Below are positions 28,101-59,617 of a DNA stretch of 64,000 nt, in pieces (the stretch's first letter is position 1; each line of letters starts with the position of its first letter). The notes beneath the pieces are model-generated. The model had not been told where the DNA came from. It saw only the letters and a list, made by a program, of their open reading frames with translations, and did no database searches. The stretch is from Hormiphora californensis. Taxonomy: Eukaryota; Animalia; Ctenophora. Where the stretch lies: assembly GCA_020137815.1 (NCBI GenBank), contig CM035356.1, positions 5,332,001 to 5,396,000 of the forward strand, in the 5' to 3' direction. Both the position numbers and the translations under genes were made by a program.

Positions 28101-31100
28101 AAGATGGTGGGACGCCCTGGACTTCGTTTGTGTCCAGTTTGGAGTGTGTGAAACATATGGAAAGTAGTGTGGTTGCGAAAATTATAAATTCCTGATGATT
28201 ATTCCTGATGACAATAAAGTTATATATTATATGACTTGATTATTACGGAAACTCACTGTGTCATGTGTAATTGTATTATAGGGATGATTTGTCTGTTGCG
28301 GTACTATCACTACTACGTGACTATACAGCGGTATCAATACACAATTCATGAAAATTGAGAGTGAGAGAGGGAGGGAGAGAGAGAGAGAGAGAGAGAGGGA
28401 GGGAGAGAGAGAGGCTATACTTGAAGAATAATACATAAAATATGCTTGGACAGCTGCAGCTACAGTCAGTAATCAAGGATGATCCTAATTTCTCGTTCAT
28501 CATTAAAATTACTTTCTACATGTCCTAAACACTGTTATTACACTGTCCCCCCTCACCGTTCAGGGAGTGTGTTTAGAACCCCGGCCCCTCCTCCTAACTG
28601 TCCCCCTCACCAACAACATCACCCCACAGGGAGAGTGTTTACCGGATTGCAAGAATCTAAGTGAGCGGCTGGAGGAGATGTTTTCCAAGGATTCTATGGT
28701 CCAAGTACCAAACAGTATCACACTCGCTCACGCCAAGGAGAAATCTGTTCAACATGTGGGTGAAATTACTGTATTTTTGATAAGTTATTTGTTTGGTTAC
28801 CTATTTACCTCGACCAAAACGCGGAGTTTTTACGTCAGCCGACCCGAAACCGGATTAAATTTGGGCACCCGCTGGTCTAAGGGTCTCCAAATACGTCAAA
28901 ATATGTTTAAATTATCATTTGGGATCATGCAGACCTTTTAATTACATGTAATTACCCTTTAATTACATGAAATTACATTTTAATTACATGTAATTACTTC
29001 CAATTACATTCCAATTACTTCAGCACCTCGAGAGCTTTCGAACGCACCCTAGAACACCTTTATACTCCTTCTAATTGCCGAGTTCTGTATACCCCTTATT
29101 TTGACTGTTTTTCGCGTCCTACCCCTTATAGGTTTGGGCACACCCATCGCCACACCCCCTATACGTCGCGGGACCTCGAGACCTTTCCAACGAGCCATAG
29201 AACACATCTCTACTACTTCAGGGGGCTTCAAAACTTTCACTCTAAAAATATCTATGGTTTTATGGTTTATGGTTATGGTTATGGTTATGGTTTTTTTTTC
29301 ATCTGGTATTAAGGGCCTGTCGGCTCGGCCCCGTTGTTTTAGTTTTAGGGGGGATGTTTTAGGGGGGGTGGGTTGAGTTTGGGTTATATTCGGGTCGGGG
29401 GGCCTTGCCAGGCCCCGAAACATTTGGTTTGTTTTTACATACCCCGAATTCTTTTCTTTTTTTTTCGACGTCAGCGCGGCTAACCCCGGTTTGTTTTTAC
29501 ATGTATGTAAATGTATACCCCGAATTCTTTTGGGCCAATCTTATTTTAGTCTTCTCCATCAATCTTATCTCATTACTAAAGGGAGATCTGTTTGGTTTCA
29601 ATCTGCCACTTAACACCTGAAAGTGTATCAAATGTTGTAGCTATATCATGTTACAACTAACTGCACTCTGTTACAACTCTGTATATCATCTACAGTACTA
29701 GCTGATCTAACATTACATATATGTAATGTCAACTAGTCTAACATAGTAAACATGTGGGAACAATGTTATATGTATCAGCTAATAACGTAGCAAACATTTA
29801 ACATTTAGACTCTAAAGTCTAAAAAACTAACATGTTTCAGTCGGTAATACGGTCGTTACGTAACCACGGTAGCTGCCTATTCCTGAAAAACACTGCTGAT
29901 GCTAAACTCTTCATCACTACCCTTGTAAACAAGATGCAGAAATGGTAAGCTTACCAATTTTGACGTAATAATTATAATATTATAGACTAAAAAATTTTAT
30001 TACCAAACCTCGATTTACTTCCCCAGCTTCATTGTATCACTTCACTACCAACTGTACCAATCCACTCCCACTTTCTAGTGTAACATTTTAATGCTTCTTC
30101 TAGTGTAACCACACTTCACTTGTACTCCCACATTATAACGTTTAAATAGTGTAACGCGTCCTATACTAAATATGCCCCCCAGTGTAAAACTTCAATCCCC
30201 TCCCAGTGTAACAACTAAACCCTTATGCCCCCCCCCCAGTGTAACGCGACATTCGAGAATGAGTCCAGTGACTCTGAAAGTAGTGGGAGACTTCTCATCC
30301 TGTTCCCTGATACTCCGGCCCCTCATGGACAGTCTGAATAATAAGAGTGCGGATTGGGTGAATAGTATTCAGTTCATATTCATACCTACAGGTTAGAGAA
30401 TTACCTTCCAAATGTGGGCATTCTGCATTGTACATAATATATTCATTTATTGTACCCCAATGTGGGCATTGTACAAACATTAATTTTACCCCCCCCCCCC
30501 CCCCACCAGCTACCTTTATGTTACAGATGACCTACACTCCGCCTCTCTTTTTTTGTTTTTTTGGATCATCCTCGTGCCTATTTATGTCGCAGATGCTGAT
30601 TATAACCCCCTTTTTCTGTTACAGATGCTGATTATAACCCCCTTTTTCTGTTACAGATGCTGATTATAACCCCCTTTTCTGTTACAGATGCTGATTATAA
30701 CCCCCTTTTCTGTTGCAGATGCTGATTATAACCCCCTTTTCTGTTACAGATGCTGATTATAACCCCCTTTTCTGTTACAGATGCTGATTATAACCCCCTT
30801 TTCTGTTACAGATGCTGATTATAACCCCCTTTTCTGTTACAGATGCTGATTATAACACCCTTTTCTGTTACAGATGCTGATAACCCTATTGGGAGGTACG
30901 TATCGACACTAGACGACACCTACACGCGGCTCCTGGAAAGTCTCTCAGGGGATACCGTGGATCTGATATCGAGCTATGAGCGAGATGCAAAGGATTCAAC
31001 TCGACTTTACGTAGGGAGGGTGTTACTTCAGCAAGTAACAGACCAGTAAGTTATAAATTGTAATCAAGGCGAAAACAACATGTTTTTGGAACTATTTCTC

Positions 31101-34100
31101 ATATTTTCTACTTTGATGCCTGAACATTATGCAGGCATATCACTGCACTGGCAAGCGCAAAGGTTGCCATCCCCCTCCCTCCCCCCAAAAAGCGCCGCCA
31201 GAAACGCAGGGATACGTTTATGGGTGTTCGACCGGACTCCAGTCTCCAGAAGGCTATAGCGCGACTCTCTTTCTAATCCGTTAGACTTGAAATTTGAAGA
31301 GATTTAGAGAGGGAAAGAGACATTGTGATATCTAGGTTAAATTGGTTGAATTTTGGTTAAATTTGGTTGAATTTGGTAGAGGTTGGACATGGTAATATGC
31401 CAGATAGCCACGACAACCGGAATTGTGGGCATCCTAGACAGTTACCGACACTCTCAGGCTGTGGACCACAAGTGGAGGCCGGTCGGATGTGAAAATGAGG
31501 TCGGGCGTGAAAATGAGGTCGGGTGCGGTGTGAAAATGAGGTCGGGTGTGAAAATGAGGTCGGGTGTGAAAATGAGGTCGAGTGTGAAAATGAGGTCGGG
31601 TGTGAAAATGAGGTCGGCTGTGAAAATGAGGTCGGGTGTGAAAATGAGGTCGGGTGTGAAAATGAGGTCGGGTGTGAAAATGAGGTCGGGTGTGAAAATG
31701 AGGTCTGGTGTGAAAATGAGGTCGGGTGTGAAAATGAGGTCGGGTTTGAAAATGAGGTCGGGTGTGAAAATGAGGTCGGGTGTGAAAATGAGGTCGGGTG
31801 TGAAAATGAGGTCGGGTGTGAAAATGAGGTCGGGTGTGAAAATGAGGTCGGGTGTGAAAATGAGGTCGGGTGTGAAAATGAGGTCGGGTGTGAAAATGAG
31901 GTCGGGTGTGAAAATGAGGTCGGGTGTGAAAATGAGGTCGGGTGTGAAAATGAGGTCGGGTGTGAAAATGAGGTCGGGTGTGAAAATGAGGTCGGGTGTG
32001 AAAATGAGGTCGGGTGTGAAAATGAGGTCGGGTGTGAAAATGAGGTCGGGTGTGAAAATGAGGTCGGGTGTGAAAATGAGGTCGGGTGTGAAAATGAGGT
32101 CGGGTGTGAAAATGAGGTCGGGTGTGAAAATGAGGTCGGGTGTGAAAATGAGGTCGGGTGTGAAAATGAGGTCGGGTGTGAAAATGAGGTCGGGTGTGAA
32201 AATGAGGTCGGGTGTGAAAATGAGGTCGGGTGTGAAAATGAGGTCGGGTGTGAAAATGAGGTCGGGTGTGAAAATGAGGTCGGGTGTGAAAATGAGGTCG
32301 GGTGTGAAAATGAGGTCGGGTGTGAAAATGAGGACGGGTGTGAAAATGAGGACGGGTGTGAAAATGAGGACGGGTGTGAAAATGAGGACGGGTGTGAAAA
32401 TGAGGACGGGTGTGAAAATGAGGTCGGGTGTGAAAATGAGGACGGGTGTGAAAATGAGGTCGGGTGTGAAAATGAGGTCGGGTGTGAAAATGAGGTCGGG
32501 TGTGAAAATGAGGTCGGGTGTGAAAATGAGGTCGGGTGTGAAAATGAGGTACGGGTGTGAAAATGAGGTACGGGTGTGAAAATGAGGTCGGGTGTGAAAA
32601 TGAGGTCGGGTGTGAAAATGAGGTCGGGTGTGAAAATGAGGTCGGGTGTGAAAATGAGGTCGGGTGTGAAAATGAGGTCGGGTGAAATGAGGACGGGTGT
32701 GAAAATGAGGTCGGGTGTGAAAATGAGGTCGGGTGTGAAAATGAGGTCGGGTGTGAAAATGAGGTCGGGTGTGAAAATGAGGTCGGGTGTGAAAATGAGG
32801 TCGGGTGTGAAAATGAGGTCGGGTGTGAAAATGAGGTCGGGTGTGAAAATGAGGTCGGGTGTGAAAATGAGGTCGGGTGTGAAAATGAGGTCGGGTGTGA
32901 AAATGAGGTCGGGTGTGAAAATGAGGTCGGGTGTGAAAATGAGGTCGGGTGTGAAAATGAGGTCGGGTGTGAAAATGAGGTCGGGTGTGAAAATGAGGTC
33001 GGGTGTGAAAATGAGGTCGGGTGTGAAAATGAGGTCGGGTGTGAAAATGAGGTCAGGGTGTGAAAATGAGGTCGGGTGTGAAAATGAGGTCGGGTGTGAA
33101 AATGAGGTCGGGTGTGAAAATGAGGTCGGGTGTGAAAATGAGGTCGGGTGTGAAAATGAGGTCGGGTGTGAAAATGAGGTCGGGTGTGAAAATGAGGTCG
33201 GGTGTGAAAATGAGGTCGGGTGTGAAAATGAGGTCGGGTGTGAAAATGAGGTCGGGGAACTCAAGTGTCAGCCACATGAGAGCCTTGCAATAAATGGCAC
33301 GGGCGGATCGATGAATGTATATGCAGTGTATTTTTCCTGAACATTCCAAACACACTTACCAATTTCATTGCATTGTGGTACATCACTGGACCACGACCCA
33401 TCTCCCTGACAAGTTAGTGTTGCACTTCCCATAAGGATAAGGGCGGCAGCACATTCGATGGTGGCAGTTGTCCCTGCTGGTGAAGCAGTCCAGTTTCCTT
33501 GTGTTGACCCCTCAACAGTAAAGGCGGGACACGGTGATTCTAAATGGAAAAAGACACTTATAAGTTTATTGCAGGGGATGTAATATGGAGAGCTTTTGTA
33601 TACAGTACACACTACACATTTTAGTTCACTATGACTGAACCATTCCATGTACTAAAAGCCCCGGTGGTGGTATGCTCTGCGTGTGTGTAGTACATAGAGT
33701 TGTGTACTGTGTACTGCATGTACTGCATGTACTGTGTACTGTGTATGTGTTAGGATAACCAAAATTTAAATCATGTGATCCAACCCCCATAGTGTGCACT
33801 GTGTAATACTAAAGTGGTAAAGATTAAATTTAGATCCTTACCTGCTCTGTAGAAGTCAGATGCTGTGTCTGGTTGGGAACCAGTACTGTATAACAATATC
33901 TGCTCCACAACATCACCACCCCACCACGGAGCACATTCGCTACGTGAACTATTAGCGAATCCGATGTTCAGCACTTTAACATTGTTACATGTGATGGTAA
34001 AGGCAGTCTCTGTTTTGGTAATCGTCCAGATCTTATCCACCTCCACCGGGGGTTGTACTGGCAGGTCTTGCCAGTTTTCGGTGCAGTAGCCTATCGCATA

Positions 34101-37100
34101 CTGCATTGGGGAGGAAAACTTTATACCCACCCTACTGATCAAGCTACTGTCCTTTTTGTACATCTGCACATTGATCTCCTCACTACTGCCCAGTGTTGAG
34201 TCCGTCTTTATCTGGAGAGGCGTTTCCTCCAGATCCCAGAGTATAATCACATCCCGCTCTACAGCTGTCCAGTCTGAAAGTGCAATAAAGTAAATCACTA
34301 ATCTTGCTTTATATCAGACGAAAACGTAACTAACTCCTGGGACCCCATCATATTCCCACTTTGAAGGTTGGTGAAGCCGGATGAAATCAATGGTTATATT
34401 TCATAAAATGTTTAATATGTGACCAACCTGTGAGAACAACAACTGTTCCACACAATGCAGCTGTGAAGAGAAGGAAACGTATCATATCACTAAATAACTG
34501 AATAAGTATTTTAGTAAACTGTTACAGAGCAATTTACGGAAAGAATGGCACGACCGACACTAACAAATTTGGCGGGGAAACGATTTAGAAAAGGGAAAGA
34601 AAGAGATGGTAAAATGATAAAAGCGGGAGGCCAATGGTGACTAAGTTTTTAAAGGCTTCAAACACAAACAGAAGCTCAAGAAGTACAGTTTATCTGAACC
34701 CAAGCTCTCCCTTTCAGTATAAAAATAGGAGACAGGAAAGCTGTATCTTGAAATTCTTCGTAGCGTTTCGAAGGGGAGAGATACATGCCAAATAGAGCTG
34801 AGATCACTATTCTGTAACTGCCTCCCAGCTCTGAGGTACTGGGCAGTTAGACTGACACACAGGTTCTAATAAGATCTGGGAGATGACCTCACACTTTTTA
34901 TTTAACTCCCCCGTACGTGTCTCGTTACCTTGGAATTGCAACTTTAAAGATAGTTTTAGATCTCTGATCTGTTTAAGAGCAAGTAAAGCAATTAGCACAG
35001 CACGTGGATAGTTGTTGGAAACTCAACAAGTGGGAAATACGTCATCGATCAATGAGGAAGAGCTTGATCTGCTAATTGGTTTATCTAACACATTACCTCC
35101 ACGGAAAAGACATAGAGTGAGACAGAGAGAAAAAAAGATAAAAACAGATCCCTCGATTTCCGATCGGTGCGATCGCCACAGTTTTAATAGTAATCATAAT
35201 ATATGCCTACTATACATACATTCTACTACACCCCATGCCTGAAGAAAGTTCAACCTCGGATGAAAACTATGTACTAGGAAACTTTTAGGTGAATTGTTTT
35301 GTCTACACATGCAAAACTATACAAAACCATCCCACGTACTGCAGTAATTCTTCCGCCAACTACTAGTGTTATATTAAGGGTACGCTAACCAAAAATTTTT
35401 TTCGAGTGCAGGGAAATCTCTCACCGTAGGGTTGTAGGCCATGCCAAGGAGACCTCAAATATGCAATTTTAGTCCTTAAGTCGAATTCATATTTTTGCTA
35501 TAGCTGTTTAAAAAATGTCCTGTAAATACGTTTTTGGCATCTCAAAAAAATTTTTTTAAAGATAGGAGCATGAAAATTCGGGGATTTGAAGAGGACATGA
35601 AGGTAAATAACCACAAAATTTTTTTTTGCAATCCGAGCTGATTTCCGGTCCTGAGATGGATTTCTTTTTTTCCACTTTAACGCCCTATTTGGCAAAGTTC
35701 CGAAAACATGTGAAAGCTGTAAATTGGTGAAAAGTTGCGTCTAACGATTATCTAAGTGGCCATAAATTTTGGGCGTGTCCTTATTTGAGATAAGCTGTAC
35801 AGAGTTTTTTTTGTGAAAGCCGTCATTTCAGAAATAAATAAATTCCCTGTATCTCAAAAACGGCTGATCGTAGAGACCTGAGACTATGCTTAAACGATTC
35901 AGAAGGTCCGATTTTGGGGGGGTCTTCTGAGAGACATTTTGCTCCTACTTCAACCGTTTTTGCTGTAATTGCGAAAAACAAAAACCCATCTTCGCCATCG
36001 TGGATTTTTTGTGATTTTGTTTTTGGTGATTATACAGGGTGTGAACTGCATGTCGTGTTTGCTAGTCGCGAGCGCGCTTGCGAGACAAGCAAACACGTCA
36101 AGGTTCATTAACAAGCATGCTGCTCAGTCATTTTAGATTTAATACACAATGTAAGGATACCATGTAATAGGTGAGACTCTTGCCGTCACCCTCGTTCAAG
36201 TCCCGTGAAAAACGGAGCAGTACACGCAAACTGATGCCCATTTTCCTCGCGTGACCCCGATTCAGCAGTTTGAGACACCAACTCTTTAGGGGGCCATATC
36301 TCAGGAACCAGACAAGATAGGAAAAATCGCCGTCTAATGAGGCGTACAGTTTTTAATCTAGTTTACCACTGTACCGGCCGTTTCACTCTCCGACCTAAAA
36401 CAAAAATCGCAACCCCACAAAACTTCAAAATAATGAAATTCGCATCTCGCATGTCGTGTTGCATGTCGTGTTGCATGTCGTGTCATGTTATTGACGCGCT
36501 CGCGTTCAACTCTCACACAGCAGCTGCAGAACATGGCGGGAAACATCGAGGAGTAGAGAGAGGGTCGGTGCCGAATCAAATATTTCTTGATCTTGATCTA
36601 CTCCATCTCTCAGCTATCCTACCCCTCATCAACTCGATCTCTCAGCTACCCTACCCCTCATCTACTCAATTTTTCAGCTACCCTACCCCTCATCTACTCC
36701 ATCTTTCAGCTACCCTACCCCTTATCTAGTCTATCTCTCAGCTACCCTACTCCTCATCTACTCCATCTCTCAGCTACCCTACCTCCCATTTACTCCATCT
36801 CTCAGCTTCCCTATTAGGGAAGCATAGAGATTGAAACGATTAGGGGTAGGGAATCCCTATCCATAATCGTTTCCATCTCTATGCTTCCCTAGCCCTCATC
36901 AACTCCATCTTTCAGCTACCCTACCCCTAATCTAGTCCATCTCTCCGCTACCCTACTCCTCATCTACTCCATCTCTCAGCTACCCTACCTCCCATTTACT
37001 CCATCTCTCAGCTACCCTACCTCCCATTTACTCCATCTCTCAGCTTTCCTACCTCCCATTTACTCCATCTCTCAGCTTACCTACCTGCCATTTACTCCAT

Positions 37101-40100
37101 ATCTCAGCTTCCCTACCTGCCATTTACTCCATCTCTCAGCTTCCCTACCTCCCATTTACTCCATCTCTCAGCTTACCTACCTTCCATTTACTCCATCTCT
37201 CAGCTTCCCTACCTCCCATTTACTCCATCCCTCAGCTACCCTACCTCCCATTTGATCCATCTCTCAGCTTCCCTACCTCCCATTTACTCCATTTCTCAGC
37301 TTCCCTACCTCTCATTTACTTACTCCATCTCTCAGCTACCCTACCTCCCATTTACTCCATCTCTCAGCTTCCCCACCTCCCATTTACTCCATTTCTCAGC
37401 TACCCTACCTCCCATTTACTCCATCTCTGAGCTTCCCTACCTCCCATTTACTCCATCCCTCAGCTACCCTACCTCCCATTTGATCCATCTCTCAGCTTCC
37501 CTACCTCCCATTTACTCCATTTCTCAGCTTCCCTACCTCTCATTTACTTACTCCATCTCTCAGCTACCCTACCTCCCATTTATTCCATCTCTCAGCTTCC
37601 CCACCTCCCATTTACTCCATTTCTCAGCTACCCTACCTCCCATTTACTCCATCTCTCAGCTTCCCTACCTCCCATTTACTCCATCCCTCAGCTACCCTAC
37701 CTCCCATTTGATCCATCTCTCAGCTTCCCTACCTCCCATTTACTCCATTTCTCAGCTTCCCTACCTCTCATTTAGTACTCCATCTCTCAGCTTCCCTACC
37801 TCCCATTTACTCCATCTCTCAGCTTCCCTACCTCCCATTTACTCCATCTCTCAGCTACCCTACCTCCCATTTACTCCATCTCTCAGCTTCCCTACCTCCC
37901 ATTTACTCCATCTCTCAGCTACCTTACCTTCCATTTACTCCATCTCTCAGCTTCCCTTCCTCCCATTTACTCCATCTCTCAGCTACCCTACCTCCCATTT
38001 ACTCCATCTCTCAGCTTCCCTACCTCCCATTTACTCCATCTCTCAGCTACCCTACCTCCCATTTACTCCATCTCTCAGCTACCCTACCTCCCATTTACTC
38101 CATCTCTCAGCTTACCTACCTCCCATTTACTCCATCTCTCAGCTTCCCTACCTCCCATTTACTCTATCTCTCAGCTACCCTACCACCCATTTACTCCTAC
38201 CCCTGAGAGATGGAGTAAATGGGAGGTAGGGAAGCTGAGAGATGGAGTAAATGGGAGGTAGGGAAGCTGAGAGATGGAGTAAATGGGAGGTAGGGAAGCT
38301 GAGAGATGGAGTAAATGGGAGGTAGGGAAGGTAAGCGATGGAGTAAATGGGAGGTAGGGAAGCTGAGAGATGGAGTAAATGGGAGGTAGGGTAGCTGAGA
38401 GATGGAGTAAATGGGAGGTAGGGAAGTTGAGAGATGGAGTAAATGGGAGGTAGGGAAGCTGAGGGATGGAGTAAATGGGAGGAAGGGAAGCTGAGAGATG
38501 GAGTAAATGGGAGGTAGGGAAGCTGAGAGATGGAGTAAATGGGTGGTAGGGTAGCCGGTAGCTGAGAGATGGAGTGAATGGGAGGTAGGGTAGCTGAGAG
38601 ATGGAGTAAATGGGAGGCAGGGATGGAGTAAATGGGAGGAAGGGAAGCTGAGAGATGGAGTAAATGGAAGGTAAGGTAGCTGAGAGATGGAGTAAATGGG
38701 AGGTAGGGAAGCTGAGAGATGGAGTAAATGGGAGGTAGGGTAGCTGAGAGATGGAGTAAATGGGAGGAAGGGAAGCTGAGAGATGGAGTAAATGGAAGGT
38801 AAGGTAGCTGAGAGATGGAGTAAATGGGAGGTAGGGAAGCTGAGAGATGGAGTAAATGGGAGGTAGGGTAGCTGAGAGATGGAGTAAATGGGAGGTAGGG
38901 TAGCTGAGAGATGGAGTAAATGGGAGGTAGGGAAGCTGAGAGATGGAGTAAATGGGAGGTAGGGTAGCTGAGAGATGGAGTAAATGGGAGGAAGGGAAGC
39001 TGAGAGATGGAGTAAATGGAAGGTAAGGTAGCTGAGAGATGGAGTAAATGGGAGGTAGGGAAGCTGAGAGATGGAGTAAATGGGAGGTAGGGTAGCTGAG
39101 AGATGGAGTAAATGGGAGGTAGGGAAGCTGAGAGATGGAGTAAATGGGAGGTAGGGAAGCTGAGAGATGGAGTACTAAATGAGAGGTAGGGAAGCTGAGA
39201 AATGGAGTAAATGGGAGGTAGGGTAGCTGAGAGATGGAGTAAATGGGAGGTAGGGTAGCTGAGGGATGGAGTAAATGGGAGGTAGGGAAGCTGAGAGATG
39301 GAGTAAATGGGAGGTAGGGTAGCTGAGAAATGGAGTAAATGGGAGGTAGGGAAGCTGAGAGATGGAGTAAATGGGAGGTAGGGTAGCTGAGAGATGGAGT
39401 AAGTAAATGAGAGGTAGGGAAGCTGAGAAATGGAGTAAATGGGAGGTAGGGAAGCTGAGAGATGGATCAAATGGGACGTAGGGTAGCTGAGGGATGGAGT
39501 AAATGGGAGGTAGGGAAGCTGAGAGATGGAGTAAATGGAAGGTAGGTAAGCTGAGAGATGGAGTAAATGGGAGGTAGGGTATCTGAGAGATGGAGTAAAT
39601 GGGAGGTAGGGAAGCTGAGAGATGGAGTAAATGGGAGGTAGGGTAGCTGAGAAATGGAGTAAATGGGAGGTAGGGAAGCTGAGAGATGGAGTAAATGGGA
39701 GGTAGGGTAGCTGAGAGATGGAGTAAGTAAATGAGAGGTAGGGAAGCTGAGAAATGGAGTAAATGGGAGGTAGGGAAGCTGAGAGATGGATCAAATGGGA
39801 GGTAGGGTAGCTGAGGGATGGAGTAAATGGGAGGTAGGGAAGCTGAGAGATGGAGTAAATGGAAGGTAGGTAAGCTGAGAGATGGAGTAAATGGGAGGTA
39901 GGGTATCTGAGAGATGGAGTAAATGGCAGGTAGGGAAGCTGAGATATGGAGTAAATGGGAGGTAGGTAAGCTGAGAGATGGAGTAAATGGGAGGTAGGAA
40001 AGCTGAGAGATGGAGTAAATGGCAGGTAGGGAAGCTGAGATATGGAGTAAATGGGAGGTAGGTAAGCTGAGAGATGGAGTAAATGGGAGGTAGGAAAGCT

Positions 40101-43100
40101 GAGAGATGGAGTAAATGGGAGGTAGGGTAGCTGAGAGATGGAGTAAATGGGAGGTAGGGTAGCTGAGAGATGGAGTAGATGAGGAGTAGGGTAGCGGAGA
40201 GATGGACTAGATTAGGGGTAGGGTAGCTTAAGGGTACGCTAACCAAAAATTTTTTTCGAGTGCAGGGAAATCTCTCACCGTAGGGTTGTAGGCCATGCCA
40301 AGGAGACCTCAAATATGCAATTTGAGCTCTCAAGTCGAATTCATATTTTTGCTACAGCTGTTTGAAAAATGAACTGAAAATAAGTTTTTGGCATCTCAAA
40401 AAATTTTTTCAAAGATAGGAGCATTAAAATTTGGGGATTTGAAGAGGACATGAAGGTGAATAACCACAAAAATTTTTTTTGCAATCCGAGCTGATTTCCG
40501 GTCCTGATATGGATTTCTTTTTTTCCACTTTAACGCCCTATTTGGCAAAGTTCCGAAAACATGTGAAAGCTGTAAATTGGTGAAAAGTTGCGTCTAACGA
40601 TTATCTAAGTGGCCATAAATTTTGGGCGTGTCCTTATTTGAGATAAGCTGTACAGAATTTTTTTTGTGAAAGCCGTCATTTCAGAAATAAATAAATTCCC
40701 TGTATCTCAAAAACGGCTGATCGTAGAGACCTGAGACTATGCTTAAACGATTCAGAAGGTCCGATTTTGGGGGGGGGGTCTTCTGAGAGACATTTTGCTC
40801 CTACTTCAACCGTTTTTGCTGTAATTGCGAAAAACAAATTCTATGAAAAGGGCAAAAGCTAAACTCCAATATCCTGTAATTAGGGAATTTTAGCTAAGAA
40901 AGGACCGAAACTATGGAAAAATGTTTAACAAGCTAATTCCTTCACTATTTGGTCCATATGGGTCCCTATAATAATCAAAAACAAAATCACAAAAAATCCA
41001 CGATGGCGAAGATGGGTTATTGTTTTTCGCAATTACAGCAAAAACGGTTGAAGTAGGAGCAAAATGTCTCTCAGAAGACCCCCCCAAAATCGGACCTTCT
41101 GAATCGTTTAAGCATAGTCTCAGGTCTCTACGATCAGCCGTTTTTGAGATACAGGGAATTTATTTATTTCTGAAATGACGGCTTTCACAAAAAAAAACTC
41201 CGTACAGCTTATCTCAAATAAGGACACGCCCAAAATTTATGGCCACTTAGATAATTGTTAGACGCAACTTTTCACCAATTTACAGCTTTCACATGTTTTC
41301 GGAACTTTGCCAAATAGGGCGTTAAAGTGGAAAAAAAGAAATCCATCTCAGGACCGGAAATCAGCTCGGATTGCAAAAAAATTTTTTGTGGTTATTCACC
41401 TTCATGTCCTCTTCAAATCCCTAAATTTTCATGCTTCTATCTTTAAAAATTTTTTTTGAGGTGCCAAAAACGTATTTACAGGACATTTTTTATACAGCTG
41501 TAGCAAAAATATGAATTCGACTTGAGAGCTCAAATTGCATATTTGAGGTCTCCTTGGCATGGCCTACAACCCTACGGTGAGAGATTTCCCTGCACTCGAA
41601 AAAAAATTTTGGTTAGCGTACCCTTAAAGATGGAGTTGATGAGGGCTAGGGAAGCATAGAGATGGAAACGATTATGGATAGGGATTGCCTACCCCTAATC
41701 GTTTCCATCTCTATGCTTCCCTAATAGGGAAGCTGAGAGATGGAGTAGATGAGGAGTAGGGTAGCTGAGAGATAGACTAGATAAGGGGTAGGGTAGCTGA
41801 AAGATAGAGTAGATGAGGGGTAGGGTAGCTGAAAAATTGAGTAGATGAGGGGTAGGGTAGCTGAGAGATCGAGTTGATGAGGGGTAGGATAGCTGAGAGA
41901 TGGAGTAGATCAAGATCAAGAAATATTTGATTCGGCACCGACCCTCTCTCTACTCCTCGATGTTTCCCGCCATGTTCTGCAGCTGCTGTGTGAGAGTTGA
42001 ACGCGAGCGCGTCAATAACATGACACGACATGCAACACGACATGCAACACGACATGCGAGATGCGAATTTCATTATTTTGAAGTTTTGTGGGGTTGCGAT
42101 TTTTGTTTTAGGTCGGAGAGTGAAACGGCCGGTACAGTGGTAAACTAGATTAAAAACTGTACGCCTCATTAGACGGCGATTTTTCCTATCTTGTCTGGTT
42201 CCTGAGATATGGCCCCCTAAAGAGTTGGTGTCTCAAACTGCTGAATCGGGGTCACGCGAGGAAAATGGGCATCAGTTTGCGTGTACTGCTCCGTTTTTCA
42301 CGGGACTTGAACGAGGGTGACGGCAAGAGTCTCACCTATTACATGGTATCCTTACATTGTGTATTAAATCTAAAATGACTGAGCAGCATGCTTGTTAATG
42401 AACCTTGACGTGTTTGCTTGTCTCGCAAGCGCGCTCGCGACTAGCAAACACGACATGCAGTTCACACCCTGTTATAGGGACCCATATGGACCAAATAGTG
42501 AAGGAATTAGCTTGTTACACATTTTTCCATAGTTTCGGTCCTTTCTTAGCCAAAATTCCCTAATTACAGGATATTGGAGTTTAGCTTTTGCCCTTTTCAT
42601 AGAATTGGTTTTTCGCAATTACAGCAAAAACGGTTGAAGTAGGAGCAAAATGTCTCTCAGAAGACCCCCCCAAAATCGGACCTTCTGAATCGTTTAAGCA
42701 TAGTCTCAGGTCTCTACGATCAGCCGTTTTTGAGATACAGGGAATTTATTTATTTCTGAAATGACGGCTTTCACAAAAAAAACTCTGTACAGCTTATCTC
42801 AAATAAGGACACGCCCAAAATTTATGGCCACTTAGATAATCGTTAGACGCAACTTTTCACCAATTTACAGCTTTCACATGTTTTCGGAACTTTGCCAAAT
42901 AGGGCGTTAAAGTGGAAAAAAAGAAATCCATCTCAGGACCGGAAATCAGCTCGGATTGCAAAAAAAAATTTTGTGGTTATTTACCTTCATGTCCTCTTCA
43001 AATCCACAAATTTTTATGATCCTATCTTTACAAATGTATTTTTAAGATGCCAAAAACTTATTTTCAGTTCATTTTTCAAGCAGCTGTAGCAAAAATATGA

Positions 43101-46100
43101 ATTCGACTTGAGAGCTCAAATTGCATATTTGAGGTCTCCTTGGCATGGCCTACAACCATACGGTGAGAGATTTCCCTGCACTCGAAAAAAATTTTTGGTT
43201 AGCGTACCCTTAACACGTGTATAATAGTTGCACTTGTATAATATTAATATTTGCACATGTAGTTGCACATAGATCGGAGAATGGAACATGTCAGGTTGAG
43301 GTGCCCTTCCTTTACTCTAACACCCCACTCCTCCCCCACACCCCAGATCAGAGAATGGAACATGTCAGGTTGAGGTGCCCTTCCTTCACTCTAACACCCC
43401 ACTCCTCCCCCACACCCCAGATCAGAGAATGGAACATGTCAGGTTGAGGTGCCCTTCCTTTACTCTAACACCCCACTCCTCCCCCACACCCCAGATCAGA
43501 GAATGGAACATGTCAGGTTGAGGTGCCCTTCCTTTACTCTAACACCCCACTCCTCCCCCACACCCCAGATCAGAGAATGGAACATGTCAGGTTGAGGTGC
43601 CCTTCCTTCACTCTAACACCCCACTCCTCCCCCACACCCCAGATCAGAGAATGGAACATGTCAGGTTGAGGTGCCCTTCCTTTACTCTAACACCCCACTC
43701 CTCCCCCACACCCCAGATCAGAGAATGGAACATGTCAGGTTGAGGTGCCCTTCCTTTACTCTAACACCCCACTCCTCCCCCACACCCCAGATCAGAGAAT
43801 GGAACATGTCAGGTTGAGGTGCCCTTCCTTTACTCTAACACCCCACTCCTCCCCCACACCCCAGATCAGAGAATGGAACATGTCAGGTTGAGGTGCCCTT
43901 CCTTTACTCTAACACCCCACTCCTCCCCCACACCCCAGATCAGAGAATGGAACATGTCAGGTTGAGGTGCCCTTCCTTTACTCTAACACCCCACTCCTCC
44001 CCCACACCCCAGATCAGAGAATGGAACATGTCAGGTTGAGGTGCCCTTCCTTTACTCTAACACCCCACTCCTCCCCCACACCCCAGATCAGAGAATGGAA
44101 CATGTCAGGTTGAGGTGCCCTTCCTTTACTCTAACACCCCACTCCTCCCCCACACCCCAGATCAGAGAATGGAACATGTCAGGTTGAGGTGCCCTTCCTT
44201 TACTCTAACACCCCACTCCTCCCCCACACCCCAGATCAGAGAATGGAACATGTCAGGTTGAGGTGCCCTTCCTTTACTCTAACACCCCACTCCTCCCCCA
44301 CACCCCAGATCAGAGAATGGAACATGTCAGATTGAGGTGCCCTTCCTTTACTCTAACACCCCACTCCTCCCCCACACCCCAGATCGGAGAATGGAACATG
44401 TCAGGTTGAGGTGCCCTTCCTTTACTCTAACACCCCACTCCTCCCCCACACCCCAGATCAGAGAATGGAACATGTCAGGTTGAGGTGCCCTTCCTTTACT
44501 CTAACACCCCACTCCTCCCCCACACCCCAGATCAGAGAATGGAACATGTCAGGTTGAGGTGCCCTTCCTTTACTCTAACACCCCACTCCTCCCCCACACC
44601 CCAGATCAGAGAATGGAACATGTCAGGTTGAGGTGCCCTTCCTTTACTCTAACACCCCACTCCTCCCCCACACCCCAGATCAGAGAATGGAACATGTCAG
44701 GTTGAGGTGCCCTTCCTTTACTCTAACACCCCACTCCTCCCCCACACCCCAGATCAGAGAATGGAACATGTCAGGTTGAGGTGCCCTTCCTTTACTCTAA
44801 CACCCCACTCCTCCCCCACACCCCAGATCAGAGAATGGAACATGTCAGGTTGAGGTGCCCTTCCTTTACTCTAACACCCCACTCCTCCCCCACACCCCAG
44901 ATCAGAGAATGGAACATGTCAGGTTGAGGTGCCCTTCCTTTACTCTAACACCCCACTCCTCCCCCACACCCCAGATCAGAGAATGGAACATGTCAGGTTG
45001 AGGTGCCCTTCCTTTACTCTAACACCCCACTCCTCCCCCACACCCCAGATCAGAGAATGGAACATGTCAGGTTGAGGTGCCCTTCCTTTACTCTAACACC
45101 CCACTCCTCCCCCACACCCCAGATCAGAGAATGGAACATGTCAGGTTGAGGTGCCCTTCCTTTACTCTAACACCCCACTCCTCCCCCACACCCCAGATCA
45201 GAGAATGGAACATGTCAGGTTGAGGTGCCCTTCCTTTACTCTAACACCCCACTCCTCCCCCACACCCCAGATCAGAGAATGGAACATGTCAGGTTGAGGT
45301 GCCCTTCCTTTACTCTAACACCCCACTCCTCCCCCACACCCCAGATCAGAGAATGGAACATGTCAGGTTGAGGTGCCCTTCCTTTACTCTAACACCCCAC
45401 TCCTCCCCCACACCCCAGATCAAAGAATGGAACATGTCAGGTTGAGGTGCCCTTCCTTTACTCTAACACCCCACTCCTCCCCCACACCCCAGATCGGAGA
45501 ATGGAACATGTCAGGTTGAGGTGCCCTTCCTTCACTCAGTGTGTTTCGTGTTCCGAACCAAATGTTGCGTGACCTGTTTGGAGGCAGACAACCACGGAGA
45601 GGGAGGTGGGGAACCGAAATGTAGGGAGCATGAAACTGATATCCAAGTGGATTATAGTCCGCATAGTAAACGGGACGCTAGCGCCAAGGTAAGAAACTCC
45701 TCCTTGTTTTGTTCTGTCTTGCTTTAGTTGTTGCCGGAGAAGCAAACTAAACCTACAGTGGGTAGAGCTCAGACTGTCTAAAGCTGTTCGATCAGTTTTC
45801 TTAATTTGTATATTTGTATTTCAATTCATTCATTTGTATGCTGCAGTTTTTCGGTGCAAGCCGTAAAGCGCTGTGTTTGAACTGTGTCATGTGCGTGTAA
45901 GGGTACCATATATATCGAGGCCTGAGTGGGGTGACATGTAGGTAAATTAACAATTAACGCACATCGACCATGATACAGGGAGGCATCCCTTTCCACTGTA
46001 GTTGTCAGGGGGGGCATCCCTTTCCACTGTAGTTGTTGTTGGTAAATTAAACCATAGTCCCGGGGCACTGTGTGTGTGATGTTGTGTGATATAATATAGT

Positions 46101-46510: not shown

Positions 46511-47969
46511 GCTCTTTAGAGACTTTCTCTCTCTATTGCACATGTGCAGGGGTCTGTTTTTCTTCTAATCTTTGATCTCTATTCTCTTTTCTAATCTCTC
46601 TATTGCAGGGGTCTGTTTCTCTTTTCTAATCTCTATTGCAGGGGTCTGTTTCTCTTTTCTAATCTCTATTGCAGGGGTCTGTTTCTCTTTTCTAATCTCT
46701 CTCTATTGCAGGGGTCTGTTTCTCTTTTCTAATCTCTATTGCAGGGGTCTGTTTCTCTTTTCTAATCTCTCTATTGCAGGGGTCTGTTTCTCTTTTCTAA
46801 TCTCTTTATTGCAGGGGTCTGTTTCTCTTTTCTAATCTCTATTGCAGGGGTCTGTTTCTCTTTTCTAATCTCTTTATTGCAGGGGTCTGTTTCTCTTTTC
46901 TAATCTCTATTGCAGGGGTCTGTTTCTCTTTTCTAATCTCTCTATTGCAGGGGTCTGTTTCTCTTTTCTAATCTCTATTGCAGGGGTCTGTTTCTCTTTT
47001 CTAATCTCTATTGCAGGGGTCTGTTTCTCTTTTCTAATCTCTCTATTGCAGGGGTCTGTTTCTCTTTTCTAATCTCTCTATTGCAGGGGTCTGTTTCTCT
47101 TTTCTAATCTCTCTTTATTGCAGGGGTCTGTTTCTCTTTTCTAATCTCTCTCTATTGCAGGGGTCTGTTTCTCTTTTCTAATCTCTCTTTATTGCAGGGG
47201 TCTGTTTCTCTTTTCTAATCTCTATTGCAGGGGTCTGTTTCTCTTTTCTAATCTCTCTCTATTGCAGGGGTCTGTTTCTCTTTTCAAATCTCTCTATTGC
47301 AGGGGTCGGTTTCTCTTTTCAAATCTCTCTATTGCAGGGGTCTGTTTCTCTTTTCAAATCTCTCTATTGCAGGTTTGCCACGGTTGAAAAAGCAGCATAG
47401 CGATGTACCTACAATAAATATCAAAGTCAGCAGTTTCAACTGCATGCTACGGTCCAATAACTCTGCTATTACTTGCTCAGGTAGTTAATTATTAATTAAT
47501 TATTAATCAGATGTTAATAATATTTCATGGTGTCCTGTATGCTGCAAGTCCACCATATATTGTAGGTAAATTGTAGTATTTACTGTTCACTACTAAAACA
47601 ATACAGTTGTTCATTGGTATTCATATGAGAATGAGTTTAATCCTGTCTAGAAACAGTGTCTCTTTACCCCAATGTAGACCTGCAAGTGTAAGTTTGTTAG
47701 ATCACCGGGCGTAGTTCAAATTCATTACATTTCTCACTTGCACGTATACGTCATACATATATCTCAAATACAGGTCATCTCTTAGAATAAATCTAACCCT
47801 CCTCCCCTCCCCTGTAGTTAAAATAGACGGGGTAGAACATCGAAACGTCCAATCGCTCTACGTCTCTCCTGTGTGGGCTCAGAACCTCAACTCTATTTCC
47901 CTACTAAAATGTTTCCCTTCCCTTGGCGTTGGGCCAGGAGTCTCCTCAGCGGGGGGAATTCTATGCTGA
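13108..47969 (+). CDS. PACS1: Phosphofurin acidic cluster sorting protein (PACS1/PACS2 co-orthologue), 17 coding exons
   Basis: Phase-consistent exons: 13108-13190, 13363-13456, 13812-13895, 14083-14208, 15332-15423, 15523-15607, 15838-15956, 16273-16374, 27667-27934, 28630-28755, 29841-29944, 30240-30391, 30874-31045, 45493-45688, 46170-46272, 47373-47480, 47818-47969. Motifs [72 protein letters not shown]...KRDASAK and KIDGVE match PACS in order. Confidence 0.93.
13442..13623 (+). repeat. 20-bp tandem repeat = last 15 nt of PACS exon 2 plus GTAAG donor (9 copies)
   Basis: TCAATTAGTAAC(G/T)GG|GTAAG x9; the functional donor is at 13457. Confidence 0.9.
14283..14933. mobile_element. Hairpin-rich non-coding element with 12-bp terminal direct repeats
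   Basis: TATAAGTTGTAC occurs at both ends. Repeated CTTATAACAC...GTGTTATAAG stems and CGAGCCTGCGAG motifs lie inside. Confidence 0.4.
16481..27682 (+). repeat. 11-kb 34-bp minisatellite = PACS intron 8 acceptor plus start of exon 9 (~330 copies)
   Basis: The unit is CCGATACTCGGGTACC-TAACTCTGTCCCCCACAG. The last copy runs into exon 9 at 27667, and the 5'-most copies are degenerate. Confidence 0.97.
27908..28013 (+). repeat. ~30-bp repeat of the PACS exon 9 end plus donor (3 copies)
   Basis: GAGAGTGG(A/C)GGATC(G/A)TTCGAG|GT(A/G)AGT with donors at 27935, 27965 and about 28002. Confidence 0.85.
30515..30890 (+). repeat. 31-bp tandem repeat of the PACS exon 13 acceptor (10 AG|ATGCTGAT copies)
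   Basis: ATGCTGATTATAACCCCCTTTTCTGTTACAG x9 from 30593; the exon starts at 30874. Confidence 0.92.
31481..33256. repeat. 18-bp minisatellite GGTGTGAAAATGAGGTCG (~98 copies)
   Basis: The periodicity is direct and produces the spurious CENEVG, SGVKMR and TSFSHP ORFs. Confidence 0.97.
33360..34485 (-). CDS. Secreted protein: signal peptide, ~145-aa uncharacterised domain and a sushi/CCP domain; nested antisense in PACS intron 13; 3' end not found
   Basis: Phase-1 exons: 34428-34485 ([19 protein letters not shown]), 33842-34273 (DWTAVER...[14 protein letters not shown]...DTASDFYRA) and 33360-33539 (CP...ATIEC...[22 protein letters not shown], a CCP pattern). Confidence 0.8.
36035..42471. mobile_element. 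Foldback-type element: ~560-bp TIRs plus inverted 32-bp satellite arrays, 5-bp TSD (TTATA)
   Basis: CAGGGTGTGAACTG...CAGTTCACACCCTG is flanked by TTATA (36030-36034, 42472-42476). The CTCCATCTCTCAGCTACCCTACCTCCCATTTA array switches strand at about 38200. Confidence 0.85.
40232..41623. mobile_element. Complete 1.39-kb copy of the same TTAA element inserted in the foldback satellite
   Basis: TTAA occurs at 40228-40231 and 41624-41627, and the termini are identical to those of the outer copy. Confidence 0.9.
43271..45535 (+). repeat. 74-bp minisatellite = start of PACS exon 14 plus branch/pyrimidine tract/CAG (30 full units plus the final exon copy)
   Basis: ATCAGAGAATGGAACATGTCAGGTTGAGGTGCCCTTCCTTTACTCTAACACCCCACTCCTCCCCCACACCCCAG; 45493-43273 = 2220 = 30 x 74. 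Confidence 0.96.
46545..47373 (+). repeat. 33-37-bp tandem repeat of the PACS exon 16 acceptor (~23 copies)
   Basis: GGGTCTGTTTCTCTTTTCTAATCTCTCTATTGCAG units; the last TTGCAG precedes exon 16 at 47373. Confidence 0.92.
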
Positions 47970-56592: not shown

Positions 56593-57297
56593 ATCTAGAA
56601 GCATAACATTCATCAATATTTTACCAAATTGACAAACAAATAATAGGCCGAGCTGTCTTGAAGGTGAGTACAGTTAAAAAGGGCCACGCAATATAAACCA
56701 ACTTAGAAAAATCAAAAAATCTGACATCAATTCTAAATGCCAATTAAAAGACTTGATTGAAAAGATATAAATCAGTAAAATCATACACACACACACACTT
56801 AGTACGGCAGAACCTCCATACCGGCGCCAAGGAATGCTCCGGCATGCTCCGCTGTCACAGAATTAATCAGTCCCATAATGTCAGATACACTCTCCTCGAC
56901 AGTAAGAGTTCCCTGGGGACCACCCATGTCGGTCTTCACCCATCCAGGATGCAGACAGAAACACAGGACACCCTGATTTACCAGCTCCAGACCGTGACAT
57001 CGAGTGAGCATGTTAACAGCAGATTTGCTAACACGATACCCAAAAGCGTACCCAGCGTTCTGGCTGTTGACACCTGCAATACTTCCTAAATTGGATGAAA
57101 CGTTGACAATCCCTGCCCGGGAACAGGATACCGGGAGGTCAGAGCGGTGATCAGCAGCCTTTATCAAGAGAGACCGAAATCCTTCAGTGACAGTCTGAAC
57201 TCCAACAACATTTGTCTCCAAGACCTGTCTTAAGGTATCGTTTGTTGCTACGAAAACAGAACCTGCTTTGGGATAACTCATCACGCCAGCATTGTTA

Positions 57298-58489
57298 TAA
57301 TAATAATAATAAAAATGACAGTTTATATCCCGCACTGACACAGTTTGTATACAGACAACTCGTTTTCCTTAATTTGAAAGGGACTGCAGTAGACTGCCTG
57401 CTCCTAGCACGGATCTCTGATAACGGTGAGTTAGTGGGGAACTATCCCACTTGGATAAGATTATTACGGATGAAGTAGCAGCCGTCAGGATCTTCTGATC
57501 GTATCCGCTTCAAAGTGGACCTTAGAGCTTTTTGCTCTTTCAGTTCAGAGGGCGTAAGATCCGGAGAGAGATAAACAGCCGAAAACTGTTTGGAGTCTTT
57601 GAGGTTTCGTGCCTTTCTGAGGAGTGCGAGGAGAGTCGCTCTCTTCTCCAGGGATACTAAGAGCGGTCTAGGGCGCTTCTCATTTCTTTCGCCGATGCGT
57701 TTCATCGTAGTCACTTTCGGTTTCTCATTTAATTCCTCAAAAAGTTCGTCTAAAGTAGTTTTAGCTACTCTATCGGTTGTTTCTGGGAGACCAAACACAA
57801 CCATGTTCTTCTCTCTTCCGGGCTGTTGGACGGGAGTAGGATGATTCACTGGTAGTGGTTTTCCCACTTTGGGGGAGGTTGCAGCACAATTCTGTGCTAG
57901 CACAGTAGAGTAGGCTTTCACCTTCTGCACCGATGCTGTCACTGTACTGAGTTGTTGCTTCTGGTGGTTGATAACCGTTTGCTGAAGCTCGATTACGTTA
58001 ACCCGATGGCGGTCAAGTTCTTCTTTACATTCACGCAGCTGTTTCTCGAGGTTTTCCACACTGATAACCGTTTCAAAATTGTTCATTGTTGCTCGGGCAA
58101 GTTTCATACTGGAGAGAAAAATACGCGAAGTAGCCTCGATTATTTCACTCGTAGTTCGGTCCTTGAGACAATGTCTAAAGTACGAACCCCAGTGCTTGCT
58201 AGGCGAAGCTAAGCTGTCGTTGGTTAACATTGAATCGGGTGCAGCTTGAATCGATCTATAACATTGAGTAAACTCATCTGGTTTGATGCTCGTCGTGTTG
58301 TCCGAATTCAACAGGTAAACTTCAGAAACAAAGTCATCCACCGTCTCTTCTAATCGTTTTATCATAGGGTTATCGCCCTCGTACTTCGCTTCCGACATTA
58401 TCAACGTTTCGTTTTTCTGCCCTTCGGGGCTGTTACATCGGATTCATCTTCCTCTCAATAAATAGTTTTACGTTGTAGTTGATGAAAGT
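57298..58489 (-). mobile_element. ORF1-only non-autonomous LINE-like retroposon
   Basis: 6-bp TSD TAACAA (plus TTGTTA at 57292-57297 and 58490-58495), a (TAT)n 3' tail, one ORF and no RT. Confidence 0.8.
57442..58398 (-). CDS. LINE ORF1-like protein (coiled coil plus RRM/CTD-like), 318 aa
   Basis: Heptad region LEKQLRECKEELDRHRVNVIELQ. NMVVFGLPE, RIG...RPRPLLV and VYLSPDLT motifs are typical of L1/CR1/L2-type ORF1p. Confidence 0.78.
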   Translation of the reverse strand: MSEAKYEGDNPMIKRLEETVDDFVSEVYLLNSDNTTSIKPDEFTQCYRSIQAAPDSMLTNDSLASPSKHWGSYFRHCLKDRTTSEIIEATSRIFLSSMKLARATMNNFETVISVENLEKQLRECKEELDRHRVNVIELQQTVINHQKQQLSTVTASVQKVKAYSTVLAQNCAATSPKVGKPLPVNHPTPVQQPGREKNMVVFGLPETTDRVAKTTLDELFEELNEKPKVTTMKRIGERNEKRPRPLLVSLEKRATLLALLRKARNLKDSKQFSAVYLSPDLTPSELKEQKALRSTLKRIRSEDPDGCYFIRNNLIQVG

Positions 58490-59617
58490 TTGTTAATCAA
58501 TAGATTCAGGCCTGCAGCACCCAGGAGCGTATCAACACTTTTCACGGCGCTGGAAACCGATTGCTCGTTTGAGACTTCAAGTGGAACATGATGAACGTTT
58601 GGATCTTGTTTCACCAAACTCTCTAGCTCCTCGCTCATTGACCGCGAACAAGCAATTATTTTACAGTTTGATCCGGAGCTTTTGTTAGCTGCTGCAAAAT
58701 GTTTCAGAAGACACAGGCCAATACCACGATTTGATCCAGTTATCAGAACAGAACCAGGTAACCCAGCCATGTTGATCAGAAGGAAAGCTGAGCGAAAAAG
58801 GAAAGAGGGAAAAAAAGTGGGGAAAAAACTCCGACCCGGAAACTTTTTATTTTCGTGACTCGCTTTTTATTTTATTTTTTCGTTGCTTGAACAAACGAGC
58901 GCGCGCTGCCATAATACAGTTTTTCGCGCGGCTTGTTATTTGCGCGTTCTAATTTTGCGCTGACAAGCGTCAAATGTAAGTTTTGTCTGTTTTGGTAATT
59001 CCGAACAATTTTGGCTTTGATCCTGAATCTTATCATTAAGATTATTGGCAAAAACAACCGACCAAATTTTACTTTTTGTAAAATAAAATGAAACGTGATT
59101 CAGATAAACGAGGCAAATAAACATTCATTGGATGGTTCAAATTTAATTCAAATTCTACAAATATTATTTTAGTCTACATTCCTGTGGCATTCATAATCCA
59201 CAGGAAACCCATATTGAATCTACCCTATTGTTCAGTCTCACTAAGCTCCTAGTCGCCTATTATACATGTTATAGACTTGACATGTTCCTCATCTGTCAGA
59301 TCTCACACCGGGCCGAAGCCCGAAGGCCCGGTGCTTAAGGGGCCGAAAGGACAGACTGCATAGCATGGCAACAACAGACCAAAACTACAATACCAACTCC
59401 AAGATCTCGCTCACACAGGGGTGTACATGTCACCAAATTGTTCCCAACTGGTTTTAATTAACATTTTAATCTACATTCCAGGACAAAGTGTACCAGTGAG
59501 CCAATCGTTATCCATGATCCTTAATAGGGCCGTACTAGTTGGTCTCTTCTCCTCAAATTCGGCACTCCTACAACCAGCCTGATAGGAGATATTGTTGTTG
59601 AGTTACTTACTCAACAA

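Follow-up and report, generated by a model that had tools for sequence, protein, structure and literature searches.

A 74-bp minisatellite over the exon 14 acceptor of a PACS-like gene in Hormiphora californensis, likely a mirage array and unlikely a newborn intron

Ahead of exon 14 in a Hormiphora californensis gene, the exon start is repeated in tandem, each time behind an AG. The question is whether these copies are decoy acceptors that leave with intron 13 or whether a new intron is being born among them. The window, i.e., the whole 64,000-nt stretch of DNA that was analysed, was compared with contigs of sequencing runs, some of them from a sister organism (organism B). With a probability of about 0.85, the array was judged to be a minisatellite made of the intron end and 45 exon nucleotides, probably derived from one seeding duplication and probably spliced out whole through the last AG (45492). 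It likely belongs to the already described "mirage" class of minisatellites and is unlikely to be an intron being born. The features are collected in Table 1.

Table 1. Features of the host gene, the 74-bp array, and its surroundings (window coordinates).
Feature	Position	Strand	Basis or remark
Host gene, likely PACS1/PACS2-like; 17-exon hand-built model, 721 aa	13108-47969	+	Open 721-codon frame
Decayed copies of AG + exon start, ahead of exons 12, 10, and 8	30060-30240, 28560-28630, 16140-16273		
Donor-side duplications (exon end + GT), 2 to 9 copies	13442-13623, 16354-16449, 27908-28007, 928-1175 (minus)		
34-bp x 332 acceptor array, exon 9, 11 kb	16482-27683		5' copies decayed; far bigger than the 74-bp array
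31-bp x 9 acceptor array before exon 13	30590-30881		5' copies are decayed tails
Exon 13, 31-bp acceptor array before it	30874-31045	+	Gene model
Intron 13 if the last acceptor is used (model A), 14,447 nt, GTAAGT...CAG	31046-45492	+	Gene model
TTAA-bounded foldback element, long inverted arms, inverted 32-bp array at centre	35374-43213		
Second TTAA-bounded copy nested in the foldback element	40228-41627		
AT-rich spacer between foldback element and array, 57 nt	43214-43270		Short internal repeats
First-copy AG + 11 nt before it	43260-43272	+	By-eye comparison with organism B tails; inferred
74-bp minisatellite, 30.6 copies	43271-45537	+	Tandem Repeats Finder, 99% matches
Acceptor tail of intron 13, functional-looking (TAAC + C-rich tract + CAG)	45464-45492	+	Matrix score, organism B
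Exon 14 (196 nt; incoming phase 2, outgoing phase 0)	45493-45688	+	Open frame; conserved in organism B DNA and P0001
35-bp x 23 acceptor-tail array before exon 16	46582-47373		AG then GGGTCTGT, not the present exon start

The host gene was considered likely to be a PACS1/PACS2-like protein-sorting gene. Among nine exons scanned, one (14083-14208) matched the PF25332 domain (C2_PACS_N) with an E-value of 2e-16, i.e., 60.7 bits against a cut-off of 27. The C-terminal Pacs-1 domain gave no Pfam match from single exons, the queries being just 34-65 aa each. Exons 11-17 were taken by us to resemble PACS. In the 17-exon model, exon 14 joins the donor after 31045 in phase. Protein P0001, labelled Pleurobrachia bachei, was the sole homologue among four candidates and was 97% identical over exon 14; the exon 13 query returned 0 homologues among 55 candidates. 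Exon 14 was found in RNA in run X20, as one 151-nt contig (45525-45675) that lies wholly inside the exon without crossing a junction. Runs X13 (RNA) and X15 placed 0 contigs on the exon 13/14 region, which carries no weight either way.

The 74-bp array noted in the preliminary description was recovered by Tandem Repeats Finder, its end moving from 45535 to 45537. The unit is composed of AG, nucleotides 1-45 of exon 14, and a 27-nt C-rich intron tail. By letter-level count across the array, 31 AG/ATC starts are spaced exactly 74 nt apart, and each of the 30 full units has at most one substitution against the consensus. The final partial copy is the actual exon 14 start and departs from the unit pattern at position 48. 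At unit position 6, the first, sixteenth, and last copies have G, and 28 of the 29 inner copies have A. In each of the 29 internal copies, the tail has the same letters as the last, real one. The branch motif CTAAC is at 45463-45467, and its C is the last exon-derived letter of the unit. The proto-splice sites CAG/GT and GAG/GT were found in the letters of the unit, and TTGCACATAG before 43273, the last AG at 45491-45492, and the donor GTAAGT after 31045 were all where they had been described.

Near-identity of the units could point to an assembly artefact or an inflated copy number, but this explanation is scarcely credible. In DNA run X2, which looks independent but may be the source sample itself, unit contigs had a depth of 2027-2392 against 63.8 in the unique flank, a ratio of 32-37 that does not equal copy number. 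The first-copy junction and the unit-to-unit joint were both seen as loose ends in this run. Because of this ratio and the loose end at the first-copy junction, the array is unlikely to be artefactual, and the same 74-nt joint was found in organism B. In run X1, the unit depth over 45464-45527 was 231 times that of the flank, i.e., about sevenfold above the X2 ratio. This excess may come from a far longer allele, from copies at other places, or from library bias, as the unit contains a GATC. The first-copy junction was absent among the X1 loose ends listed and was not used as evidence. Another X1 loose end, after 45498, is presumably sequencing adapter and was disregarded.

Splice-site choice was assessed with scoring matrices built from 27 hand-modelled introns of the window, the true sites being scored leave-one-out. 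The modelled true sites scored 3.9-13.2 for donors and 1.2-16.0 for acceptors (27 each). The last acceptor (45492), which is used in model A, scored 11.3. The first-copy acceptor TTGCACATAG scored -11.2, so that its earlier characterization as natural-looking does not hold for this genome. Past the branch motif, the first AG reached is that at 45491, 26 nt away. A YTAAC at -45 to -12 was present in 13 of the 27 modelled acceptors, i.e., this tail type is common in the window. With any of the 30 upstream AGs, translation stops early, and the protein has 586 or 593 aa rather than 721. Because each upstream AG truncates the protein, selection would retain only arrays that are skipped. The matrix is silent on why the internal acceptors lose, since their 29 tails are identical to the last. 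Model A is thus favoured, if indirectly, by the scores, the premature stops, and the tail of organism B, and it is probably the last acceptor that is used.

In model B, a 22-nt exon (donor GTTGAG) or a 28-nt exon (donor GTGCCC) at 43273 would be followed by a newborn intron that ends at the same site of the last copy, by the Rogers route. The route was experimentally demonstrated for ATP2A1 in the account of PMC3265369 and proposed for mirages in that of PMC3087553, and AG/GT sites do lie in the unit. The two models give an identical mRNA, as had been claimed, which was confirmed by comparing the products. Because the 22 nt are identical between the first and last copies, SNPs cannot separate the models in this haplotype. 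However, every site that model B needs scored under all modelled true sites, i.e., 2.7 for GTTGAG and 3.0 for GTGCCC as donors, and -6.5 for CATGTCAG and -9.0 for the other acceptor beside the -11.2 of the first copy. The acceptor AG at 45514 is 48 nt from the branch motif, with two other AGs in between, of which 45491 comes first. No modelled exon is shorter than 83 nt, against the 22 or 28 nt required.

The Rogers model starts from an exon-internal segment with an AG/GT site, whose duplication supplies a usable new donor and acceptor. Here AG/GT is present, but the unit takes in an acceptor tail that already existed and is common to organism B, and the new sites score below the 27 modelled ones. 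The acceptor CAG reads CAA in organism B: position 45514 is A in all of its contigs that cover it, the last copy of a duplicated contig included, and the AG of 45513-45514 is absent. Because of this A, the CAG/GT route is closed in the duplicated organism B haplotype. The 22-nt exon with a new intron therefore found no backing in the site scores, the intervening AG, or organism B, and intron birth at the array is very improbable.

Which of the two tails is ancestral was examined in organism B. One contig of run X8 (460 nt) spans the acceptor and has just one tail, composed of TAAC, a C-rich stretch, and CAG. In run X11, a contig of depth 37 has the same type of single tail. In a second X11 contig (180 nt, depth 35), the sequence jumps back from 45537 to 45464, i.e., with the 74-nt period and the breakpoint of the array. 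The duplicated haplotype is known from this one contig, and its preceding tail was deduced from overlapping ends. The copy states across the two organisms are one, two (the single contig), and about 31. Over 45493-45598, X11 has two exon 14 haplotypes whose mutual divergence is about equal to that of either one from the window, and the 74-nt duplication is present in just one of the two. An old shared polymorphism or introgression is possible for this pattern.

P0001 starts in the intron and translates the C-rich tail. Over the nine codons before the exon, it can be reached with 6 nucleotide changes from the C-rich tail of the array, against 13 from the first-copy flank. The other 26 acceptors gave 6 to 15 changes, and because one of the 26 ties at 6, the comparison shows tail type rather than strict homology. 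Of the 11 letters that precede the first AG, 9 agree with both organism B tails just upstream of the C run (by eye; chance about 0.004), and the P0001 allele differs at this upstream stretch. Because organism B has TAAC and a C-rich tail at the same acceptor, single-copy in two contigs, the C-rich tail is by sequence comparison the ancestral one of exon 14, and TTGCACATAG is the derived side. The match at 9 of 11 letters suggests that TTGCACATAG is the old acceptor, its C tract and branch motif having been lost. The preliminary description had found no C-rich tail upstream of the first copy and had called its origin unexplained. The former observation stands, as no copy with up to nine mismatches was found elsewhere in the window. 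The latter does not, as the same tail type is carried by organism B and P0001, and the puzzle that a sister species was to settle is removed.

From these data, an origin of the array can be proposed. The segment of tail, AG, and exon start would have been duplicated either ahead of the divergence of the two organisms or across it. The new downstream tail would thereby have acquired CTAAC, with a C of the exon joined to the old TAAC. Because the C of CTAAC is the last exon-derived letter of the unit, the fuller branch motif is likely a product of the duplication. The original upstream tail would then have lost its C tract, leaving TTGCACATAG, and slippage or unequal crossing-over may have amplified and homogenised the unit. 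The last AG would win as the only one paired with the strong downstream donor at 45689. Stray products of internal acceptors would likely be cleared by nonsense-mediated decay. The foldback element upstream was also considered as the maker of the array and rejected, as 57 nt separate its end from the array and no link between the two was seen.

It is also conceivable that the internal acceptors are leaky or regulated, so that some transcripts are spliced upstream and then destroyed, and copy number would tune the dose of PACS. The 29 internal tails that match the real one, the premature stops they all yield, and the sevenfold gap in unit-to-flank depth between X1 and X2 would be in line with this. 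However, the X1 depth may stem from the GATC in the unit or from copies elsewhere, and the comparable copies in lancelet mirages, CBS 844ins68, and F7 IVS7 are described as silent in the reports cited below. Leaky use is accordingly considered improbable, if less so than a newborn intron.

Several known systems were compared with the array. In the globin genes BflGb6 and BflGb9 of lancelets, mirages are described as tandem copies of an intron 3' end and the 5' part of the next exon, with units of 10-160 bp (PMC3087553). Their copy number varies among haplotypes, the middle copies are homogenised with the end copies excluded, and donor and acceptor boundaries are both affected; intron gain is proposed there rather than shown (PMC3087553). 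Adh3, troponin C, and PGBD5 are further lancelet examples, as cited in PMC3087553 and PMC3902484. The Hormiphora unit likewise spans an exon-intron boundary and carries a splice signal (AG, 45 exon nt, and 27 intron nt), and its 74 bp are within the range given in PMC3087553. Its copy number varies too, from the single-tail and 74-nt duplicated contigs of organism B to 30.6 in the window, the depth gap between X1 and X2 being a mere hint of such variation. The inner copies evolve in concert (28 of 29 with A at unit position 6) with the end copies (G) excluded. In contrast to the 3-6 copies reported for BflGb6 (PMC3087553), there are about 31 here, and the host is a ctenophore, two organisms showing between them states with one, two, and 31 copies. 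In lancelets, RT-PCR showed the splicing to be silent (PMC3087553), whereas for the present array this is a prediction.

Human examples exist as well. In CBS c.844_845ins68, intron 7's last 52 nt together with exon 8's first 16 nt are duplicated, splicing takes the distal site, and the mRNA is reported as normal (PMC7490669, PMC2630376). This duplication also crosses an acceptor, but it has just two copies and is a polymorphism inside one species. The F7 IVS7 37-bp VNTR is a minisatellite over an exon-intron boundary whose identical pseudo-sites are described as normally silent (PMC1557585). It lies on the donor side, and the 5'-to-3' scanning that explains F7 cannot explain the choice of a last acceptor. 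In ATP2A1, an intron was gained by tandem duplication of an AGGT site (PMC3265369). As in the array, a short stretch within the gene is duplicated in tandem and the protein stays the same. However, the ATP2A1 duplication within coding sequence made a new intron, whereas the array includes an existing acceptor and merely lengthens an existing intron. A literature search found no report of ctenophore splice-junction minisatellites, and the main text of the Hormiphora genome paper, as distinct from its supplements, is without the word "minisatellite". The array extends a little-studied repeat class to a ctenophore, with steps of one, two, and about 31 copies visible side by side.

Other junctions of the window also carry copies (Table 1). 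Within 250 nt of its own intron, the junction 12-mer was found again at 6/27 acceptors and 6/27 donors. In controls, cross pairs gave 7/702 (acceptor) and 4/702 (donor), and exon-interior words gave 0 and 2 of 81. The 12/54 junctions with copies, which include the focal site and two donor matches that are single and uninspected, compare with a baseline of 0.225 unmasked, 0.121 as masked mean, and 0.067 as masked median. At the masked mean, P was 0.10 for 6/27, 0.026 for 12/54, and 0.11 for 10/54. The counts cover genes up to 48 kb, with two unresolved junctions of the minus-strand gene set aside. Tandem repeats abound in these introns in any case (baseline 0.07-0.22), so that an excess of duplications at junctions relative to intron interiors is suggestive at most. 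The exon part of the array before exon 16 may have diverged or may never have been exon.

A wider process is conceivable but doubtful, in which tandem duplication is drawn to the junctions of this lineage and keeps replacing them, the old acceptor decaying in place while its role passes to a duplicate whose chimeric branch point is better. The present duplication would then be old, shared, and still polymorphic across two species. About one-fifth of the splice sites examined in the window carry copies, and if the wider process is true, comb jellies would offer a natural series (1, 2, 31, and >300 decoys) for exon definition in an early-branching animal. The importance would grow if duplications were enriched genome-wide at junctions. 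It would also grow if decoy-number alleles spliced differently, which would probe how the spliceosome skips dozens of perfect acceptors.

Some neighbouring elements were also observed. The TTAA and GGG...CCC ends of the foldback element are, in our reading, reminiscent of non-autonomous Kolobok-type elements. In intron 13, two open frames of 180 and 127 aa are present at 33268-34313 (minus), and one has what we take to be a sushi/CCP-like cysteine pattern. This segment is likely a nested antisense gene. A long inverted-repeat element was seen by eye at 6955-7765 in an intron of a minus-strand gene. At about 56800-58780 (minus), exons seen by eye presumably resemble the start of a short-chain dehydrogenase.
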